A stretch of 9,859 bases of DNA from IMG/VR virus record IMGVR_UViG_2585427757_000009, one strand, 5' to 3'. This DNA comes from a virus. Taxonomy: Duplodnaviria; Heunggongvirae; Uroviricota; Caudoviricetes. Each line of letters begins with the position of its first letter. Position 1 is the first letter of the stretch. The position numbers were made by a program, and so were the translations under genes. Below are positions 1-9,859 of this stretch, piece by piece. The notes under the pieces were generated by a model. That model saw only the letters and a program-made list of their open reading frames with translations. It had not been told where the DNA came from and did not search any database.

Positions 1-201
1 AGCCTTGCGCTTATCTTCTTTAATCTTGAAATAAAGGTTTGTCAGGTACGTCAGCAGGCCAAATACCAGGCTACCCAGCACACCTATTGCTGCCCACTGT
101 GAGGGCGTGACTTTATCGAGCAGCTGTAAAAACCAGTAACCGGCACTACCTGCTGAGGTGCCATAGGCGACACCCGTTGTTAACTTATCCATGGATTTCA
201 T
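1..201 (-). CDS. essD: Phage holin/antiholin, S21 (pinholin)-like, 5' part only; runs off the window start
   Basis: Reverse-complement of 1..201 translates [67 protein letters not shown] with no stop before the window edge. Two in-frame ATGs (201 and 192) give the dual-start MKSM motif. GAGGTGGGG Shine-Dalgarno lies upstream. Absent from the ORF track because it is truncated. Confidence 0.8.
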
Positions 202-789
202 AACCCCACCTCGCAGACAAAGCGGGTGTAAATTGAGGGAATACAACGTATCGCAAAAAAGCAGAAACGTAACAGACTCGGAGTCAGTGAATAACTCAGG
301 TATTGAGTTATCAGCTAATATCGAGACTCAAAAAATGGAAAAACCAGCTCGACGGCGGGTTTAAGCTGTGTGACGAAGTAACCACTCTTAACAGCATAAC
401 CAATTTTTTACGTACGTAAACCACTGAATGATATTTATGAGAATGCTACCGAGTGTTCAAAACACCACCACAAATACATAAGAAAACCTCAACAAATAAC
501 CAATAAATAATTTCCGGCGTTATTTTTAGTTAATTTAAATTAAACCATCGAATTATAGCCCCCCCATAAATAACAGCCATTAATATAAATTAGCTAATAG
601 GTTTATTTTTGTTCAAATAAGAGCCATAAATAGGTTTCGATAGAAAAAGTTCAGATAAAAATAGAGATCTACTTCACAAATTAAATGAGAAACTAAAACT
701 TACATCTTGAAATAATCACATTGATTAGATGAATATTTATCGCGCAGTGACATCATTTTTTAATAATAGTTCAAAAAAAAGGGCTCACG

Positions 790-1872
790 ATGAAAAAATT
801 AACAGTGGCAATTTCTGCTGTAGCTGCATCAGTACTGATGGCGATGTCTGCTCAGGCAGCTGAAATTTATAATAAAGACAGTAACAAGCTGGATCTGTAC
901 GGGAAAGTTAATGCTAAGCACTACTTCTCCTCTAATGATGCAGATGATGGTGATACTACTTATGCCCGTCTTGGCTTCAAAGGTGAAACCCAAATCAACG
1001 ATCAACTGACTGGTTTCGGTCAGTGGGAATATGAATTCAAAGGCAACCGCGCTGAATCTCAAGGTTCCTCCAAAGATAAAACCCGTCTTGCCTTCGCTGG
1101 CCTGAAATTCGGTGACTACGGCTCCATCGATTACGGCCGTAACTACGGTGTAGCATACGACATCGGTGCGTGGACTGACGTCCTGCCAGAATTCGGTGGT
1201 GACACTTGGACTCAAACAGATGTGTTCATGACTGGTCGCACCACTGGTGTTGCAACTTATCGTAACAACGACTTCTTTGGTCTGGTTGATGGTCTGAACT
1301 TTGCTGCTCAGTATCAGGGTAAAAATGACCGCACTGACGTAACTGAAGCTAATGGTGATGGTTTCGGTTTCTCCACTACTTATGAGTATGAAGGATTCGG
1401 TGTAGGTGCAACCTATGCTAAATCTGATCGCACTAATAATCAGGTTATCTACGGTAACAACGGTCTGAATGCTTCTGGTCAAAATGCTGAAGTATGGGCA
1501 GCTGGTCTGAAATATGATGCGAACAACATCTATCTGGCCACCACCTATTCTGAAACCCAGAACATGACTGTTTTTGGTAATAACCATATTGCCAACAAAG
1601 CACAAAACTTCGAAGCTGTTGCACAATATCAGTTCGACTTCGGCCTGCGTCCATCCGTTGCTTACCTGCATTCTAAAGGAAAAGACTTGGGTGTTTGGGG
1701 TGATCAGGACCTGGTTGAATATGTTGATGTAGGTGCAACCTATTACTTCAACAAAAATATGTCCACTTTTGTTGACTACAAAATCAACCTGATTGATAAG
1801 AGCGATTTCACGAAAGCATCTGGCGTTGCTACCGATGATATCGTTGCTGTAGGTATGGTTTACCAGTTCTAA
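790..1872 (+). CDS. nmpC: General outer-membrane porin, NmpC/Lc (OmpC/OmpF/PhoE) family, 360 aa, apparently intact
   Basis: ORF begins [23 protein letters not shown] (signal peptide, AQA-AE cleavage site) and ends with the porin C-terminal YQF. Close match from memory to the prophage-borne NmpC/Lc porin. High-expression-like codon usage. Confidence 0.9.
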
Positions 1873-1886
1873 TTTGATTACTAAAA

Positions 1887-1920
1887 GATATGTTGTGGGA
1901 GGCTTTGCCTCCCCAACATA
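1887..1920. terminator. Strong hairpin (7+8 bp stem, one bulged T) 15 nt after the porin stop; candidate porin terminator and/or tR'-like terminator on the minus strand
   Basis: atatgttgtgggaggc-ttt-gcctccccaacatat. On the minus strand it is followed by CTTTTAG; on the plus strand there is no T-tract. Confidence 0.35.
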
Positions 1921-2008
1921 TAAGTGGCTCCCTCAAGCCACTTCCTTTAGAAGCACAACCTTGCTTCTAACTATACAAACCTTCTGTTATATATTACCCT
2001 TTATTTTT

Positions 2009-2033
2009 GGGGGCGTTTCAACGCCCCATTTTT
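2009..2033 (+). terminator. Rho-independent terminator (plus strand)
   Basis: GGGGCG (2010-2015), loop tttcaa, CGCCCC (2022-2027), followed by ATTTTT (2028-2033). On the minus strand the stem is followed by an A-run, so it is plus-strand specific. Confidence 0.5.
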
Positions 2034-2060
2034 AATAACTTTTAGTAAATAATTGGCGTA

Positions 2061-2444
2061 TTAATTAGAGTTATTAACAACGATATCCATCTCTAACCGG
2101 ATATCTAATGCCATTAACATCCCTTCAATTATGCCCTCAGCCTTTTGTAACCTTTTCCCGATATAACCATCAGAGCAGCAATGCTTACCTGCCAGTGACA
2201 TGAATGTCATACCGACTACATAATAATCTACTAATAAATCGTGCAAATCGCTGTTGTTCTTTTTCAGACGGGCCATGCACCCGCAAATGATCATCGCGTC
2301 ATCGTCACAACATTGCGGGCGAGATTTTACTTTTGAAGGAATTAATCCCTTAAAACCGGCGGCAATGGACGACCAGGTCACATCTTCATGATTATTAGCC
2401 GCCCACGCTCCCCAACGCTCAAGAACCATCTGAATATCACGCAT
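2061..2444 (-). CDS. quuD: Late-gene antiterminator Q-like protein, 127 aa
   Basis: Track ORF 2061..2459 begins with a TTG-initiated MWSKL extension; the internal ATG at 2444 gives [24 protein letters not shown]..., matching my recollection of DLP12 QuuD. Sits between the nin genes and the lysis gene, as expected for Q. Confidence 0.85.
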
Positions 2445-2522
2445 CAACTTACTCCACAAAAATCAGACCAGAACGCCAATTACAAGCAACAAAACAGTAT
2501 TAGTTGATTGTTATCTCTGACT

Positions 2523-2645
2523 TCATACTCCTGCTCCTGTCAGGGTTTTGGCGTAATTCTTCAGTATTCGGTAATCGGTCAAAACAGAACCGGGGAAACG
2601 ATATAAGCGCAGACGCCCCCAGCGGTGGCGAAGAAGTTCTGCCAT
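2523..2645 (-). CDS. Small hypothetical ORF (40 aa) in the ylcG position between rusA and quuD; homology not verified
   Basis: ATG at 2645 to TGA at 2523-2525; translation MAELLRHRWGRLRLYRFPGSVLTDYRILKNYAKTLTGAGV. Positional analogy only; below the ORF-track length cutoff. Confidence 0.25.
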   Translation of the reverse strand: MAELLRHRWGRLRLYRFPGSVLTDYRILKNYAKTLTGAGV

Positions 2646-2659
2646 ATTAAACTCAAACA

Positions 2660-3022
2660 TCATTCATTCCCCATTTCGGTGATGGTCAGTTCCAGCCTCC
2701 CACCTTTGGTAACAGGCATCTTCACAACGCGGTAATCAACGACCTGAGCATCATCCAGCCAGAAACCTGCTTTAGTGAGTGCGTCAAAAGCGGCTTTTTG
2801 CAGATTATCCAGGTCACGGCGACGGCGATCCGGCATGTAGCACTCAATGCGGATTTTCACAGGCATAGCCAGGCCGATATCCAGCATTGCGTTTTTAATG
2901 ATTCGGGCGACGTTATCGCGGTATGCCTGCCCCTCTGCGCTGACGTGCGTGCGCCCGCGATTATGGCGGTAATAGCGATTATTGCTCGGAGGCCAGGGTA
3001 ATGTGATGCTGTAGGTATTCAC
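2660..3022 (-). CDS. rusA: Holliday-junction resolvase RusA, 120 aa
   Basis: [120 protein letters not shown] matches RusA. GTG start overlapping the ybcO stop (GTGA). Confidence 0.9.
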
Positions 3023-3309
3023 GCCTTAATAACCCCCTCTTTCAGCCAGATAACCTGTGTTCTCGCCATACCTTCCAGCGCGCATTCTTTTGCATATGCA
3101 GCATCGACAAAATGTGTGCGGCGGTCGATTTCGTCGTGGCAGGCAGAACATGCAATGGTGGCAATCAGGTCTGGCGGTTTGGTACCGGTGCCGCACAATC
3201 CAGTCAGCCGGATATGTGCCAGTACAGACGTTTCAGGGTTGCCATTACATACGCCAGGGATTCTTACCTGGCATTCCCGACTACGCGCTGCTTTTCTCAA
3301 ATCAGCCAT
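3019..3309 (-). CDS. ybcO: YbcO-like prophage protein (putative zinc-binding nuclease), 96 aa
   Basis: Internal ATG at 3309 gives [66 protein letters not shown]...; GGAGGA Shine-Dalgarno just upstream. The 13-codon N-terminal extension in the track ORF (to 3348) is probably not used. Confidence 0.8.
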
Positions 3310-3472
3310 GATTCCTCCTTGCTGCCAGTCGCAACCATTTTTTATCAACCAGGCTGGCGGTATATCCGAGCAGTGTTGGTATTTCGGAAGGCTTCAGCTC
3401 CGGTTTACGCTTACGACGATTTGGTACTCTGTAGATGTGTCCGTTCATGACACGAATAAGCGGTGTAGCCAT
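3302..3472 (-). CDS. ninE: NinE, 56 aa
   Basis: Hand translation from ATG (3472-3470): [56 protein letters not shown], stop TGA at 3302-3304. Start overlaps the ybcN stop (TAATG); end overlaps the ybcO start. Below the ORF-track cutoff. Confidence 0.8.
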   Translation of the reverse strand: MATPLIRVMNGHIYRVPNRRKRKPELKPSEIPTLLGYTASLVDKKWLRLAARRNHG

Positions 3473-3927
3473 TACGCCTCCTGTTTGTCGCGGAGCTGCT
3501 GGAACTCGCAGCTCTGCGGAATAGTCAGGTGGCAGCCAATATTCATCGCCCAGGCTTCAACCTTACACAGGAAGACATACATCTCTCCGGTATCAAGATC
3601 GGAGGTATGGCGTAACGACTGGATAGTGGTGATATCACCGGTTACGACATCAACCAGGTCTTTGGTTTCATAACCGAGATATGTGTGTTTGAGAGCATCT
3701 TTTACCCAAGCTGGAGTGGCGAACGTTTTACCCTTGCTGATGAGGTATTCACTGATTTCGCTGTACCACATGTGGCTGAGTGCATTCTGGGAAAGACTGC
3801 GTCTCTCGCGCCACGGTTTAAGCACCATGCGAAAGCATTTGCCCTCCTCCAGATAAGGCTGGATCTGCCGACCGATAGCGGTGAAGTTACCGCGATGCAA
3901 TTTGATACCATCTTGTGGGAGGTTCAC
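3472..3927 (-). CDS. ybcN: YbcN-like nin-region protein, 151 aa
   Basis: [66 protein letters not shown]... with GTG start at 3927 preceded by GGAGGT. Conserved order ybcN-ninE-ybcO-rusA. Confidence 0.8.
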
Positions 3928-4046
3928 GCTTCACCTCCGCAGAGATCAAACGCTGGATGCAAAATATCGCAGGTGCATTTCTGCATCTGTGAATGGAGAA
4001 GAGAGGTTGGATTGTATGTGCGCATAAACGTCCCCGTTTAGCGCAG

Positions 4047-4079
4047 AAGTCACCGGAGGAGTTCAAACTCCGGTGACTT
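4047..4079. repeat. Perfect 12-bp inverted repeat / hairpin with 9-nt loop, between the HNH-gene stop and the ybcN start
   Basis: aagtcaccggag (4047-4058), loop gagttcaaa, ctccggtgactt (4068-4079). No clear U-tract on either strand. Confidence 0.5.
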
Positions 4080-4119
4080 AATTATGGCAAGTTGATTGTT
4101 GAAAATCAATTTAGTGGAT

Positions 4120-4902
4120 TTAGGCGCAATACAAAGGATCATTAGCAGCTCTAATACCGCCCTGAATCGCAAGCCCTGTATGGCAATTTGACATTGAGCA
4201 TGATTGCCATCTGTGCAAGGGACCTCCATTAATCGAAACTTCCAGCAGATCTTTATCTCCTTTCATCCTGACCCCTTCATACAACATATCAAGACGCTCA
4301 ACAATCAATCCTGTTGGAGGTTCCATTTTTAGAACGAGGGCAAACTCTCCTGGCCCACGTCGTATTGTTATACGCGGGCCGGTACACTCCACATCCCAAT
4401 TGTCTGATTTAGCTTTCCATTCATTTTCATCTATCAGTAAAGTCTCCTTACCAATAGAATTACAGAAAATTCCTGATAAAAGCATCGGTCCATGTGGTAT
4501 GGGTGAAGGTTTCACAGAAAGAATGGGTTGTTCGTTGACTACAATCAAATTTTGACAGTTATGAAACGTCACTCCTGCAAATTTTACTGTTATAGGCTCA
4601 TTATGAAAATCAAACATTTCATTTGCAAAACCAGCCTGTAAGCACTTGGGATTTCTGTCAGCTATTTCCACTGTCTGTGCTGAAAGTCTACCACGAGCTC
4701 TTTTTTGATTGCATTGGGAGCAAAGAAGTGTCATTCCATTCGGATCATGTACTTTGGCATCAACGAAGTCAGGTTTAAAATGCTCATAATCATAAAATCC
4801 AAATCCACAAATTACACAGCCAAAGCCGCACCTTTGCCTTATCTGACGTTTTATTGTCTCAGGTATTCTTCTTGAGAGCCCGTGTTTATTAATATTGTCC
4901 AT
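4120..4902 (-). CDS. Hypothetical protein, 260 aa, N-terminal HNH (beta-beta-alpha-Me) nuclease motif with CxxC...CxxC zinc ribbon; C-terminal ~185 aa of unknown fold
   Basis: ATG at 4902. Residues ~25-70, CGFGCVICGFGFYDYEHFKPDFVDAKVHDPNGMTLLCSQCNQKRARG, fit the HNH consensus (CxxC, E/D-H, P, N, CxxCN, K). Visibly lower GC than the flanking nin genes. Confidence 0.6.
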   Translation of the reverse strand: MDNINKHGLSRRIPETIKRQIRQRCGFGCVICGFGFYDYEHFKPDFVDAKVHDPNGMTLLCSQCNQKRARGRLSAQTVEIADRNPKCLQAGFANEMFDFHNEPITVKFAGVTFHNCQNLIVVNEQPILSVKPSPIPHGPMLLSGIFCNSIGKETLLIDENEWKAKSDNWDVECTGPRITIRRGPGEFALVLKMEPPTGLIVERLDMLYEGVRMKGDKDLLEVSINGGPLHRWQSCSMSNCHTGLAIQGGIRAANDPLYCA

Positions 4903-5032
4903 ATGGTTAGTACGCTATAAGTTTGTTTCTATAATTTTACCACAATAGATAAGTTTGTATCAGAAATCGCTATATGGAGTGAGCGGAATATTTATATTAT
5001 TCATGCAATTGCTCTCCCGTACGCAGCCCGCA

Positions 5033-5058
5033 CTTCCGTCATCGCAGAATGACGGAAG
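5033..5058. repeat. Perfect 10-bp inverted repeat with 6-nt spacer, 19 nt 3' of the 107-aa ORF
   Basis: cttccgtcat (5033-5042), cgcaga, atgacggaag (5049-5058). No adjacent U-tract. Confidence 0.5.
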
Positions 5059-5076
5059 CCTTACTAACTAGCGCCT

Positions 5077-5400
5077 TTATTGAAACAGATTCTGAGGTAA
5101 ATGCGGCAATACTCGACTCCACTTATCATCCTGCCACGGCTGAAGTTTTACATGTGCCGTTTCTCGGACGAGGATTGCTCGCGCTCTGTTGAGTATCTGG
5201 GGATATTCTTGCTCGATAGAAGTGAAGCGACCAGCTTCACGATGCTCCGCAACCTGAAGAAGAGGAGTAACGTTCTGGTAGGTAATTAACATCACATTCC
5301 CTGCTCGCCATAACCAGGCGAGTGTGCAAAGTTCGTTATCAGTGAATTGTTTTGTGATTGGGGATTGTTGAACTGCTAGAACGAGAACGCCAGCATCCAT
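5077..5400 (-). CDS. Hypothetical protein, 107 aa, no recognisable family
   Basis: ATG-initiated ORF MDAGVLVLAVQQSPITKQFTDNELCTLAWLWRAGNVMLITYQ... between the ybcK-like gene and the HNH gene, same strand. Coding status unproven. Confidence 0.35.
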   Translation of the reverse strand: MDAGVLVLAVQQSPITKQFTDNELCTLAWLWRAGNVMLITYQNVTPLLQVAEHREAGRFTSIEQEYPQILNRARAILVRETAHVKLQPWQDDKWSRVLPHLPQNLFQ

Positions 5401-5511
5401 TGGCAGTCCCTATAGTAAAACCATAGCTCAGGACGCTTCGTTCAGGATAGATAATTTTATTGTACTTACCTAACTTTCTTACTATAGCACGGTTGAAAAA
5501 GTGATTATTAC

Positions 5512-7038
5512 TCAAAAATAAACCTCACCATCAACCATATATTTGAGAGCACTTATCGCCTGCTGGGCGGATATTACTTTCATTAAAGGATAGTGTTTAA
5601 AAACAATGCCATTCATAAAATAGATATCACAGGTTTTATTATCCGTATTAATTATGATTTTTTCGAATGTTTTATAGGCAAGTGTACGGCATAACTCTCG
5701 TCCATTTTTACTGGTTAAGTCAATAGCATAAAAATCACTGAATGAATTTACACCTTTACTCTTCAAAGTTTTCAATGATACCGAAGCCCTTCTTAATTCC
5801 TTATCTAATAGTCTTATTTTCTCTGCTATAGCGGTAACTTCAGGCGCGACAGACAATGCAACGATTAAATTATTAATTTTCATCTGAAGCTCAATAATTT
5901 TTAACTCTAAAGTTTCATTAGCATCTTTCTTGTTTTCAACTGGTTGAATTTTGCTACAATTAAAAAGCAATTCATTAATGATATTATAATCAACCAAATC
6001 TCTTTTTATTGATGGCCTGTCACATCGATGTAATCTTCTCATCGGACAAACATAATAGCCATGCAAACTTCCAGATACCGCATGAACAATCATGGTATTA
6101 CCACAAGCCTCACACTTCATAACTGTTCGAAGTAGATTTATTAGCATAGGATTCTTGCTACTATTGCTAATACCAAAAGGTGCCAACCGAATTTCCTGTA
6201 CAGCGTAAAACAAATCATCTGATATGACTCTGGGATAATAGCCAGCGATTTCACTTATCCCTTTCCCTCTTGCACGATATGAAGGTACGCATATACCTAT
6301 CAGAGCTTTATTCGCTAATAATTTTTCAATTACAGAAGGTCCCCATGCACTTTCTTTTCCTGAGAAATTCTTTACAGCATGATCATTTAAATACTTGGCT
6401 ATTGCATTCAATGAGCGCCTTTCCATCCTGAGTTTAAAAATTAGCTCAATAGTTTTCACCCTGTCGGGGTCTGGAACAAAACCCGTTCTTTTGTCATCTA
6501 AGGAGAGCCATCTCGGACAAGACGCCGTCATAATCGTACCTGATTCCAGTGCATCCTGCCGTTTTTTCTTCCATGATAATTTAACCCGACTTGACTTTAT
6601 CTCGCTTTCTTCATTTGCCCTTTGTGCTATAAGTATGGCTTTTATTAATGAATATGGCTCATTCAAAGAGTCAATATTATAGACTGTATTGTCGCAAAGA
6701 GTTATAACATCAATACCGTGATTCAAAATCAATTTCAGACGTTCAATCGCTTCACCGACTTTTTCTCTTGAAAGTCTGTCCAGACTTTCAACTAACAATG
6801 TAGTTCCTGGCAATATATAACCATGCTCTATAGCATCTAAAAATTCCGAAAAAGCTCCTGATTGTGCATGCTTTCCTTTGAATGCACTTAATCCTAAATC
6901 TTCATATGTTATGGTATCAAGATAATAATCACTATTTACCTTTAACCATTCAGCAATAAGTCTTCTCTGTCGGTTTAATGAGTCACCAGACATCTGACCT
7001 GGTGATGAAAATCGCATATATGCTATGGCTTTTTTCAT
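5512..7038 (-). CDS. ybcK: Large serine recombinase family protein, 508 aa, YbcK-like
   Basis: N-terminus AIAYMRFSSPGQ...SLNRQ and LLVESLDRLSR match resolvase catalytic motifs. Cys-rich segment CEACGNTMIVHAVSGSLHGYYVCPMRRLHRCD fits the zinc ribbon of large serine recombinases, followed by a coiled-coil-like C-terminus. Strongly AT-rich by eye. Confidence 0.85.
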   Translation of the reverse strand: MKKAIAYMRFSSPGQMSGDSLNRQRRLIAEWLKVNSDYYLDTITYEDLGLSAFKGKHAQSGAFSEFLDAIEHGYILPGTTLLVESLDRLSREKVGEAIERLKLILNHGIDVITLCDNTVYNIDSLNEPYSLIKAILIAQRANEESEIKSSRVKLSWKKKRQDALESGTIMTASCPRWLSLDDKRTGFVPDPDRVKTIELIFKLRMERRSLNAIAKYLNDHAVKNFSGKESAWGPSVIEKLLANKALIGICVPSYRARGKGISEIAGYYPRVISDDLFYAVQEIRLAPFGISNSSKNPMLINLLRTVMKCEACGNTMIVHAVSGSLHGYYVCPMRRLHRCDRPSIKRDLVDYNIINELLFNCSKIQPVENKKDANETLELKIIELQMKINNLIVALSVAPEVTAIAEKIRLLDKELRRASVSLKTLKSKGVNSFSDFYAIDLTSKNGRELCRTLAYKTFEKIIINTDNKTCDIYFMNGIVFKHYPLMKVISAQQAISALKYMVDGEVYF

Positions 7039-7237
7039 GGTGACACCTGCTAACGTATGCTTTTATAAACCTTAGTGGCGGGATATAATTTTTTTTTAAT
7101 TTTTATTTAAAAAAACAATTAAGGTCACATTATCTTGAATATACAACAATAATCGTATTGCAATTTTCTTACGCCATAATCTTGAAAGCACAAAAGAACA
7201 CATAAAAAAATAAAGACATTAACAAAAAGCATAAAAC

Positions 7238-7263
7238 GAGGCTCATATAAATATAAGAGCCTC
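7238..7263 (-). terminator. Candidate rho-independent terminator of emrE
   Basis: 7-bp stem gaggctc (7238-7244) / gagcctc (7257-7263) with 12-nt loop. On the minus strand it is followed by GTTTTATGCTTTTTGTT, about 30 nt after the emrE stop. Confidence 0.45.
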
Positions 7264-7294
7264 CATATTTTAGTCGTTTAGAAACAAATTATTT

Positions 7295-7627
7295 TTAATG
7301 TGGTGTGCTTCGTGACAATAGATTAATAACCAACACACCGGCACAAATTAACATCATGCCTATAATGGCTGGCAGGTCCAGCCGTTGGCCGAAAAGTCCC
7401 CATGACAGTAAGCTAATCAGGACAATACCGACTCCTGACCAGATAGCATAAGCAATCCCTGTAGGAATATAAGCCAGCGTCTGAGCTAATAACCAGAATG
7501 ATGCACAATAACAAATAATTGTACCAACAGATGGCCATAACCGTGTAAAACCTTCTGAAAACTTCATTAAGGTTGTACCAATGACCTCTGCAAGTATTGC
7601 ACCACCAAGATAAATATAAGGGTTCAT
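7295..7627 (-). CDS. emrE: Small multidrug resistance (SMR) efflux transporter EmrE, 110 aa
   Basis: Internal ATG at 7627 gives MNPYIYLGGAILAEVIGTTLMKFSEGFTRLWPSVGTIICYCASFWLLAQTLAYIPTGIAYAIWSGVGIVLISLLSWG...LSRSTPH. AGGAAAG Shine-Dalgarno upstream. The track ORF extends 18 codons further, probably spuriously. Confidence 0.95.
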   Translation of the reverse strand: MNPYIYLGGAILAEVIGTTLMKFSEGFTRLWPSVGTIICYCASFWLLAQTLAYIPTGIAYAIWSGVGIVLISLLSWGLFGQRLDLPAIIGMMLICAGVLVINLLSRSTPH

Positions 7628-7642
7628 AGCATATTCTTTCCT

Positions 7643-7677
7643 GTTCAAACTGGAGAGAATTGTACTACAGTTTGAAC
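7643..7677. repeat. Perfect 10-bp inverted repeat with 15-bp spacer, between the ren stop and the emrE Shine-Dalgarno
   Basis: gttcaaactg (7643-7652) and cagtttgaac (7668-7677). Confidence 0.5.
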
Positions 7678-7694
7678 TCAACTCACCTGTTTCA

Positions 7695-7996
7695 TCATTG
7701 TGTACCCATTGATGTTCTTTTATATACCCTCAATACCCGTTTCATCGCGGCACTCTGGCGACACTCCTTAAAAATCAGATTCGTGCTCACCTTTCCTTCC
7801 CGTTCTTCTCTGGTAGCGAACCGGTAATACACCGTTCGCCAGACCTTACCATCAACGACCAGGATTCCTGCCCGGCCATTTTAGCCGCAGCCTGATTTAT
7901 GCTGGTTACGGTTGCGCCTGTTACCGCGGCAACGTCCTGCGCACAGAAGTTCTTATGAGTCCCCAGGTAATGAATAATTGCCTCTTTGCCCGTCAT
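7695..7996 (-). pseudogene. ren: ren-like gene disrupted by an apparent 1-nt deletion (frameshift) near 7871-7876
   Basis: The ATG frame at 7996 gives MTGKEAIIHYLGTHKNFCAQDVAAVTGATVTSINQAAAKMA (lambda Ren-like), then leaves frame. A contiguous second frame encodes GILVVDGKVWRTVYYRFATREEREGKVSTNLIFKECRQSAAMKRVL..., stop at 7695-7697, also Ren-like. Start overlaps the P stop. Confidence 0.65.
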
Positions 7997-8694
7997 ACAC
8001 TTGCTCCTTTCAGCCCAAACTTAGCTTTGATTTCTGCGATCTTCGCCAGAGCCTGTGCACGATTTAGAGGTCTACCGCCCATGACAGGAAGTTGTTTTAC
8101 TGGTTCAGGTATAGCCTCACCACGGTTAATTCGCGCGATCATACAGGACAGTTCATCGGCAGCCTTGCGCCGTAATTCCGCGTCAGTCAGCGCATTGGCT
8201 CGCATGTTCTGGTACAGGTTGGTAACCAGCCAGTAGTGCGCGTTTGATTTCCACGGATAAGACTCTGCATCCGGATACAGCCCGCGCTTCCGGCAATACT
8301 CGTAAACCATATCAACCAGCTCGCTGGCGTTTGGCAGCCCGGCGGTAACGGATGCTTCTTCCCGGCACCAGGCGACAAACTGCCCGGGTGATGGCAGGAA
8401 TGGTCGATTCTGCCGACGGGCTACGCGCATTCCTGCGTTAACCTGTTCCATTGTGGTGATCCCGTTTTCCCGGAAAGCCAGAACCCACTGGCGGCGGATT
8501 TCGTTCAGTTCATTCTGGTCACGGTTAGCCAGGCTCGCCGGGAAAGTTGCCAGTAACTGGCTGAACACACCGTTGATGATCTGCGCTACCTGCTGTACCT
8601 GTGGCTTTTCGTCGTACTGTTCCGGCATGTTGTTGGCGATCCGACGCATCTGCTCACAGTCAAAGTTAACCATTTGTGCGGCGATGTTTTTCAT
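7993..8694 (-). CDS. P: Lambda-type replication protein P (DnaB helicase loader), 233 aa
   Basis: MKNIAAQMVNFDCEQMRRIANNMPEQYDEKPQVQQVAQIINGVFSQLLATFPASLANRDQNE...KAKFGLKGASV is near-identical from memory to lambda P. ATGA overlap with the O stop. Confidence 0.9.
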   Translation of the reverse strand: MKNIAAQMVNFDCEQMRRIANNMPEQYDEKPQVQQVAQIINGVFSQLLATFPASLANRDQNELNEIRRQWVLAFRENGITTMEQVNAGMRVARRQNRPFLPSPGQFVAWCREEASVTAGLPNASELVDMVYEYCRKRGLYPDAESYPWKSNAHYWLVTNLYQNMRANALTDAELRRKAADELSCMIARINRGEAIPEPVKQLPVMGGRPLNRAQALAKIAEIKAKFGLKGASV

Positions 8695-9605
8695 AAATCC
8701 ACCCCATAAATCCAGTCAGTGTTTGTCAGGTCCAGTTTTGATTTTCCGGCTGTCACTCCAGCCTGTTGCTTGTTACGGTTGATTTCGAGTTGGGTCCACT
8801 TGTCACGGAGTTTGGCCGGACTTAGCACGTTACCGGACCAGAAGTTGTCCTGGCATGCCCAGCGGAACAGCACGCACATGTCGCGGTGGTTACGTCCGTC
8901 ACGTTCACGCATCAGGCGGATATCGTTAGCCCACCCTGCAAAATTCGGTTTTCTGGCTGATGGCGCGATGGTCTTCACCATGTCAAACATCCACTCTGCG
9001 GCGGTCAGGTCTTCTGCTGTCCCCCACTTGCTGCCGCTCTGAATTGCAGCATCCGGTTTCACCACAGGAAGATCGTTTTCTGGTTGGTCAGAGGATTCGC
9101 CAGAATTCTCGGACGAAAAAGGTTTTATATTGTCTTTTGTTAGTTTGTCTTTTGTGTTTACCTGATTCGGGTAAACGCCTTTACCTGATTTGGGTAAACT
9201 TTTTTTACCTGATTCAGGTAAATTTACCTCTTTCAGGTAAACTTTATTTTTCTTACCTGATTCGGGTAATGTTGACCATTCACTGACCACATTATTAATG
9301 CCGGTATTCCGCCCGCTCTGAATAAAAATCCCACGCTTTACCAGAACACTTTTTGCAGCAGAACACTTGTGCGGCAATATCCCGGTTAATTCGGAAAGTT
9401 GCTCGTTGCTAACCCAATCCAGTTTTTTATTAAAGCCATATGTTTTGCGCATGACAGCCAGAAAGACCAGAAGCTGGTGCTGTGTTAATCCGGCCAGCAT
9501 CACAGCTTCCAGCAACTCATTTGCAATGCGCGTATAACCATCATTGTCAGCGCCAATGATATAAGACAGTAATTCACCATTTGGATTGTCCGCTCCACCC
9601 AACAT
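8691..9605 (-). CDS. O: Lambdoid replication initiator O, 304 aa; lambda-like C-terminal (P-interaction) domain, divergent N-terminal iteron-binding domain
   Basis: C-terminus ...DNFWSGNVLSPAKLRDKWTQLEINRNKQQAGVTAGKSKLDLTNTDWIYGVDL is lambda-O-like. N-terminal region (NDGYTRIANELLEA...) has O architecture but different sequence. Iterons lie inside the gene. Confidence 0.85.
   Translation of the reverse strand: MLGGADNPNGELLSYIIGADNDGYTRIANELLEAVMLAGLTQHQLLVFLAVMRKTYGFNKKLDWVSNEQLSELTGILPHKCSAAKSVLVKRGIFIQSGRNTGINNVVSEWSTLPESGKKNKVYLKEVNLPESGKKSLPKSGKGVYPNQVNTKDKLTKDNIKPFSSENSGESSDQPENDLPVVKPDAAIQSGSKWGTAEDLTAAEWMFDMVKTIAPSARKPNFAGWANDIRLMRERDGRNHRDMCVLFRWACQDNFWSGNVLSPAKLRDKWTQLEINRNKQQAGVTAGKSKLDLTNTDWIYGVDL
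9158..9269. repeat. Replication origin iterons: five copies of a ~17-bp dyad-symmetric repeat (consensus TTACCTGATTCGGGTAA) inside O, flanked by an AT-rich stretch (9121-9157)
   Basis: Copies at 9158-9174, 9181-9197, 9205-9221, 9224-9240 (variant) and 9253-9269, each with TTACC/GGTAA inverted ends. The iterons encode the repeated LPESGKK linker of O. Confidence 0.75.
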
Positions 9606-9859
9606 GTTGTTTCCTTAAGGTTCCTACACCACAAAGGGAACACTCATGCTGAGCAGAGAGGATTTTTACATGATAAAGCAAATGCGCCAGCAAGGTGCGT
9701 ATATTGTTGATATTGCCACTCAGGTTGGTTGCTCTGAGCGGACCGTCAGACGGTACCTGAAATACCCGGAACCTCCGGCCAGAAAAACACGCCACAAAAT
9801 GGCCAAACTCAAGCCGTTCATGGACTATATAGATATGCGTCTGGCTGAGAACGTCTGGA
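9606..9859 (+). mobile_element. Left end of an IS21-family insertion sequence (IS100-like), partial; exact terminus not mapped (about 9600-9645)
   Basis: istA-like ORF begins at 9646. The preceding ~40 bp carries repeated GTTCC/GGAAC motifs and starts with TGT (9606), as expected for an IS21-family end. Runs off the window. Confidence 0.6.
9646..9859 (+). CDS. istA: IS21-family transposase IstA, N-terminal 71 codons only (truncated by window end)
   Basis: Hand translation MLSREDFYMIKQMRQQGAYIVDIATQVGCSERTVRRYLKYPEPPARKTRHKMAKLKPFMDYIDMRLAENVW, with an N-terminal helix-turn-helix; matches the IS100/IS21 IstA N-terminus from memory. AAGGGA Shine-Dalgarno upstream. Absent from the ORF track because no stop lies within the window. 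Confidence 0.8.
   Translation, partial: MLSREDFYMIKQMRQQGAYIVDIATQVGCSERTVRRYLKYPEPPARKTRHKMAKLKPFMDYIDMRLAENVW

Follow-up and report, generated by a model that had tools for sequence, protein, structure and literature searches.

The 9,859-nt stretch of prophage DNA analyzed here (the window), taken from contig JNMR01000061.1 of E. coli 3-267-03_S4_C2 (assembly GCA_000700445.1), closes with a minus-strand reading frame resembling the λ replication gene O and, within about 40 bp of its ATG and on the opposite strand, the start of an istA gene. This arrangement raises the question of where O begins, what became of the early-right control region and whether the prophage can still replicate. A sequence-only reading had placed an IS21-family element at or immediately upstream of the O start codon and had proposed that it replaced the native control region. 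We conclude instead, with a probability of about 85%, that a complete ISEc62 element inserted into O of a DLP12-like lambdoid prophage, that it duplicated the target sequence TCAT and created a chimeric ORF, and that this recent event has likely left the prophage replication-defective. Native O is split by a complete ISEc62 with a 4-bp duplication, and the O-like ORF in the window is a chimera.

The assignment of the element to the IS21 family was correct. ISEc62 is catalogued in ISfinder, is named by NCBI PGAP and carries istA and istB. We extracted and compared seven independent full copies with different flanks, which gave a length of 2125 bp and the ends TGTCAGCGCC…GGCGTTGACA. All seven complete copies are bordered by a direct target duplication of 4 bp (tcat, ttat, tatc, acag, gcat, ccag and acgg), short as in the IS21 family, where 4-8 bp are typical. 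The terminal repeats TGTCAGCGCCAA and TTGGCGTTGACA match at 11 of 12 positions, and the tips read TG…CA as in other IS21 elements. An inverted copy of the sub-terminal repeat TTCACCATTTGGATTGTCCGCT of the left end is found in the right end, which contains a related unit in two places. The end repeats of the IS21 family have an L1/L2-R1/R2 organization (PMC10122671), and by analogy the sub-terminal repeats of ISEc62 are probably IstA binding repeats of this type.

The source contig runs through intact istA and istB and halts 10 nt before the right end of the IS. Over IS positions 1-2115 it has zero mismatches with the ISEc62 copy of strain AST85, which is annotated as "IS21-like element ISEc62 family transposase / IstB." Both proteins exceed the NCBIfam cut-offs: full-length IstA from the source contig scored 282.8 bits on NF033546 (IS21 family transposase; cut-off, 160 bits), with Pfam matches to rve and Mu-transpos_C_2, and IstB, encoded outside the window, scored 296.3 bits on NF038214 (cut-off, 200 bits) and matched PF01695 (IstB_IS21) with E = 1e-87, identifying it as the AAA+ helper ATPase. 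istB lies directly downstream of istA, whose stop overlaps the istB start. The window edge falls within istA, so named with 100% identity of its 71 codons in the window to the annotated ISEc62 gene; they begin at the plus-strand ATG 9646-9648 (IS position 102), and the translation opens MLSREDFYMIKQMRQQGAYIVDIATQVGCSERTV…. Many E. coli genomes carry multiple copies of ISEc62, with up to 15 matching places in a genome.

The left end of the element was mapped by comparison with both its neighbors. A megablast search of positions 9000-9859 in 5426 complete E. coli genomes recovered the full stretch in none of them; the 100% matches to native "replication protein" genes ended at 9544, in more than 20 complete genomes among the matches listed. 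Conversely, a search with 9530-9859 returned "IS21-like element ISEc62 family transposase" elements matching from about 9539-9545 onward. At the junction the window reads …aaccatcat followed directly by TGTCAGCGCC. Native O of strain 4/1-1, compared base by base, reads …aaccatcat followed by cgagatctgcc, and the AST85 copy of the IS reads …gcgttcat followed by TGTCAGCGCC; base-by-base reading in strains 4/1-1 and 64 showed that native O diverges from the window beyond 9544, and IS copies match the window from 9545 on. Given that the seven ISEc62 copies have identical termini, the left terminus in the window is base 9545, and 9545-9859 correspond to IS positions 1-315. In the annotated 1020-nt O gene the cut follows nucleotide 166; counted from the λ-like start, 76 nt precede it. 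The element thus does sit at the 5' end of the O reading frame, as had been noted, but inside the coding sequence and not at or just upstream of the start codon. Its terminus had been sought between the ATG and istA; none lies in 9606-9645, and the comparison with ISEc62 copies places it 61 bp further in, within the 5' coding sequence of O, an outcome that the sequence-only reading had itself named as counter-evidence. Features of the locus are listed in Table 1.

Table 1. Coordinates of features around the junction of O and ISEc62 in the window.
Feature	Position	Strand	Basis or remark
Left 315 bp of ISEc62	9545..9859	+	100% identical to IS positions 1-315, AST85 copy
Terminal inverted repeat, left end, TGTCAGCGCCAA	9545..9556	+	11/12 match to reverse complement of right end TGTCAACGCCAA
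TATAAG, -10-like hexamer facing istA	9560..9565	+	Read from sequence; IS positions 16-21
Sub-terminal repeat, left end, TTCACCATTTGGATTGTCCGCT	9573..9594	+	Repeat search on full copy
IS-internal ATG, in frame with truncated O	9603..9605	-	IS positions 59-61, antisense to istA
AAGGA, IS-donated Shine-Dalgarno-like sequence, 6 nt upstream of IS-internal ATG	9612..9616	-	Read from sequence
istA 5' part, codons 1-71, HTH region of transposase	9646..9859	+	Translation; Pfam HTH_23, HTH_7
TCAT, left copy of 4-bp target-site duplication	9541..9544		Right copy on contig JNMR01000040.1
Native O 3' part (nt 167-1020, residues 57-339, and stop)	8691..9544	-	Identical to IS-free relative; Phage_rep_O, TIGR01610
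λ-type origin inside the 3' part of O	9125..9278		Repeat search
Replication gene P, downstream of the 3' part of O, same operon	7993..8694	-	PF06992

The position of the terminus changes the meaning of the O-like reading frame. The ATG at 9603-9605 does open an O-like ORF, as had been noted, namely the 304-aa frame 8691-9605 (stop at 8691-8693) with a Phage_rep_O domain. This codon had been taken for the start codon of O; it cannot be, because the IS terminus is at 9545 and 9545-9605 lie in ISEc62. The first 20 residues of the ORF (MLGGADNPNGELLSYIIGAD) are encoded by the IS, a single junction codon (N) comes next, and residues 57-339 of native O make up the rest; the ORF is by all appearances an accidental IS/O fusion, the frame from the IS ATG being open to the IS tip and continuing in frame from codon 57. 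In strain 64, the nearest IS-free relative, O is intact and annotated with 339 aa, although many database entries begin at Met31 (309 aa), which is preceded by GGAGG and gives an N-terminus resembling that of λ O. Pfam places profile positions 1-95 of 95 of Phage_rep_O at residues 51-145 of native O. The window ORF retains only positions 6-95 (90/95), and its first 21 residues are non-native, so that it lacks the complete N-terminal origin-binding domain with a native start that characterizes a λ-type O. A sequence search of the PDB found no solved structure for any O relative. The RefSeq "replication protein" WP_050487766.1 (304 aa) is this same IS/O chimera, deposited as an ordinary protein.

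The origin and P are intact. The window contains the 3' 854 nt of O (O'), and the 5' 170 nt are located outside it, past the right end of the IS. oriλ is located within O (PMC6022878), and as in a λ-type O gene the iterons of the window lie within O' and P follows downstream. The origin comprises five palindromic iterons of ~19 bp (9157-9278; unit TTTACCTGATTCGGGTAAA) and an adjoining AT-rich 15-bp direct repeat (9125-9154); it is intact and lies about 270 bp from the IS.

The other side of the element was found in the same assembly. Assuming a simple insertion with a 4-bp TCAT duplication, we predicted beforehand that the reciprocal product would have 76 aa, namely native O residues 1-57 and 19 residues read from the right end of the IS. 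This sequence was matched exactly in the database by KDU22741.1 / KEL81446.1 from strain 3-267-03_S4_C2, encoded on contig JNMR01000040.1 of GCA_000700445.1. On one side of the gene for the 76-aa chimera are istB and istA; on the other are genes for a ydaT-domain protein, a YdaS/cro-like protein and an S24-peptidase (cI-like), followed by kil, gam, bet, exo and int. At the right junction, …GGCGTTGACA is followed by TCAT and then by cgagatctgcc, which is native O resumed with TCAT duplicated; over the following 6 kb, identity to strain 64 is 99.97%. With the exact reciprocal junction present in the same assembly and the 4-bp duplication perfect, the sequences point to a simple insertion that left the early-right control region intact, displaced by 2.1 kb and not replaced. 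The sequence-only reading was accordingly right that O'-P-ren'-emrE is separated from the native early-right promoter region, by the 2.1-kb IS, and mistaken that this region was replaced: the extension past 9859 that it had proposed, in search of the other IS end, leads to an intact cro-like/cI-like region directly upstream of the O 5' fragment, the second outcome that this reading had named as counter-evidence. KDU22741.1 / KEL81446.1 is deposited as a 76-aa "replication domain protein," like the entry for the 304-aa chimera an annotation artefact.

We propose that ISEc62 transposed into O after nucleotide 166, duplicating TCAT. Native O could then no longer be made, and early-right transcripts would first have to run through the IS as 2.1 kb of untranslated antisense RNA, so that polarity should lower the expression of O', P and downstream genes. 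Insertions in O can be polar on P (PMC6022878). The immunity region of strain 64 is of the YdaS/YdaT type, and between its cI-like repressor gene and kil (extract positions 17341-17853) there is no ORF of at least 40 aa; thus strain 64 appears to lack, at the λ position, an N-like antiterminator gene by which such polarity might be relieved. The prophage would most likely be unable to start replication from the origin inside O'. The earlier view of the prophage as probably defective therefore seems sound for replication, by way of the disruption of O.

Two other accounts of the structure were weighed against a simple insertion. The one we set out to examine, which has the IS at or immediately before an intact O start and cII, cro and pR removed by its insertion or an associated deletion, could appeal to an ATG with a Shine-Dalgarno-like sequence that opens an O-like ORF 40 bp from istA, and to the absence of cII, cro and pR from the window. 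That absence is real, but is due solely to the window stopping within the IS; the ATG belongs to ISEc62, native O reaches 166 nt past the junction, and the ydaT, cro-like and cI-like genes stand intact beyond the reciprocal junction. This account can hardly be correct. A second one accepts the simple insertion but supposes that recombination between ISEc62 copies (inversion or translocation) later parted the two halves of the prophage, each keeping its copy of the target duplication. Contigs JNMR01000061.1 and JNMR01000040.1 both terminate inside the IS, so their adjacency is inferred, and the multi-copy nature of ISEc62 would offer partners for such an exchange. Furthermore, the two contigs overlap over 2033 nt of the IS and disagree there at one base (IS position 227, window 9771; A vs C, istA E42D), a difference that could reflect either collapsed multi-copy reads in a draft assembly or two different ISEc62 copies. 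Draft consensus would suffice to explain this single mismatch, however; each contig extends from a unique flank of its own through almost all of the IS, and nothing positive speaks for a rearrangement. We consider this sequel to the simple insertion quite unlikely.

A further question is whether the insertion abolished O function or merely altered it, since the chimeric ORF might be a working initiator that has exchanged its first 56 residues for 21 others and still binds iterons and P, translated from an IS-donated Shine-Dalgarno sequence and ATG on RNA that stems from read-through or from antisense transcription within the IS. The frame is open and in phase, 90 of the 95 Phage_rep_O positions are kept, and the origin and P are intact. 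An IS-donated Shine-Dalgarno sequence had been suggested earlier, and a putative one, AAGGA, is indeed present 6 nt before the ATG, which makes translation of the chimera conceivable if RNA exists. An outward IS promoter driving O-P-emrE had also been suggested, but gained no support: in the IS portion at the window end we found one weak antisense promoter-like site facing O' (9/12 match at 9851-9824, where 0.5 ± 0.7 are expected), and in the whole IS in its source context four sites against 3.9 expected, both at chance level. A scan of the whole IS found no strong intrinsic terminator on its antisense strand, only two weak terminator-like hairpins on the read-through strand, a point that counts against our main reading. 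Against a working initiator, too, are the 1-in-3 prior for a frame match, which makes selection unnecessary, the polarity expected of 2.1 kb of untranslated antisense RNA, the lack of an N-like gene in strain 64 and the occurrence of the junction in two assemblies only, so that nothing points to selection. On balance, we regard a functional chimera as improbable. The N-terminus of λ O carries a ClpXP recognition signal. Were an N-terminally swapped O transcribed, the initiator might be more stable than native O, and the insertion would rewire the control of prophage replication rather than abolish it. The chance that the left end of ISEc62, with its Shine-Dalgarno sequence and ATG, rebuilds an O without its native N-terminus that could fire the origin and so rewire replication control is very small, and nothing positive speaks for it.

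GTTCC and GGAAC, which had been described as IS-end-like repeats, are present at 9620-9624 and 9637-9641, but lie within the IS, at positions 76-97 and shortly before istA, and are at chance level, a 5-bp inverted repeat arising in 28% of shuffles of this 40-nt stretch; the RNA fold of the istA leader that contains them is not significant (z = -1.3). At its right tip ISEc62 carries TTGACA, a perfect -35 hexamer (AST85 extract 5624-5629), and in its left end the -10-like TATAAG. In the split-promoter model of IS21, the -35 lies in the right end and the -10 in the left end, and the two meet at a tandem junction (PMC10122671). The ISEc62 hexamers fit this model, and by analogy their spacing would make for a strong promoter only where the two IS ends abut, in a tandem or circular form. 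In the O flank next to the left IS end, no -35 was found at 16-18 bp from TATAAG, and the right-end TTGACA points outward and, on the antisense strand, into the 5' fragment of O, not toward O'-P.

Several comparisons bear on the age of the event. The O/ISEc62 junction is absent from the 5426 complete E. coli genomes, and an exact-pattern search of GTDB species representatives returned no match; it occurs in two assemblies only. Over window positions 1-9544, strain 64 shows 5 differences in 9544 positions, and 7695-9544 is free of them. Because the junction is found in only two assemblies, O' shows zero divergence from strain 64 and the IS zero divergence from another copy, the insertion appears to be recent and confined to the strain lineage. 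Relative to strain 64 there is a single indel (window 558, G vs AC), which falls in the intergenic spacer separating essD from the porin gene; the remaining three differences are located at 4299, 7094 and 7114. Two further defects are older features of the lineage that are unlinked to the IS: ren (window 7695-7996) and ylcJ (about 7096-7246) are both annotated as frameshifted in IS-free strain 64 as well (extract positions 13696-13997 and 13097-13247, respectively). The ren frameshift had been counted together with the IS as a sign of a defective prophage; since strain 64 shares it, it predates the IS and has no bearing on it.

The element in O agrees with AST85 and the six other copies of ISEc62 in length, termini and 4-bp duplication, and differs from catalogued copies in insertion site alone. 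It resembles IS21 and IS5376 in its istA-istB operon, its multi-unit terminal repeats and the placement of the -10-like box in the left end and TTGACA at the right tip, as in the tandem-junction promoter model, but duplicates 4 bp where IS5376 duplicates 5 bp (PMC10122671).

The closest parallel for the prophage is DLP12 of E. coli K-12, in which IS3 interrupts the replication region and the pseudogenes peaD and renD are left beside emrE. Both prophages occupy the same site beside tRNA-Arg(TCT), after sfm/fimZ-like genes, share the gene order ren'-emrE-ybcK…rusA-quuD-porin-essD-rrrD and have a replication module broken by an IS. Unlike DLP12, the present prophage has kept P, the 3' part of O and its immunity and recombination region in full, and it was struck by an IS of another family, at another site and with no accompanying deletion; an IS-associated deletion as in K-12 DLP12 was considered here and ruled out by the reciprocal junction with its perfect duplication. 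Classical polar insertions in the early-right operon of λ include r14/IS1 and r32/IS2. By analogy, an IS between pR and the replication genes would be expected to lower O and P through polarity here as well; whereas r14 and r32 lie upstream of O, ISEc62 lies inside it and also destroys the native protein.

Our findings thus describe an ordinary, recent gene disruption, one more case of IS-driven prophage decay with no new biology, and their main use is a correction: the deposited "replication protein" WP_050487766.1 is a chimera. Other ISEc62 copies also lie in prophages. In strain AST85 (extract 3501-5633), a copy sits exactly at the gam start codon of a related prophage, again with a TCAT duplication. 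Several more ISEc62 copies interrupt prophage genes for a tape measure protein, a major capsid protein and a DUF968 protein.
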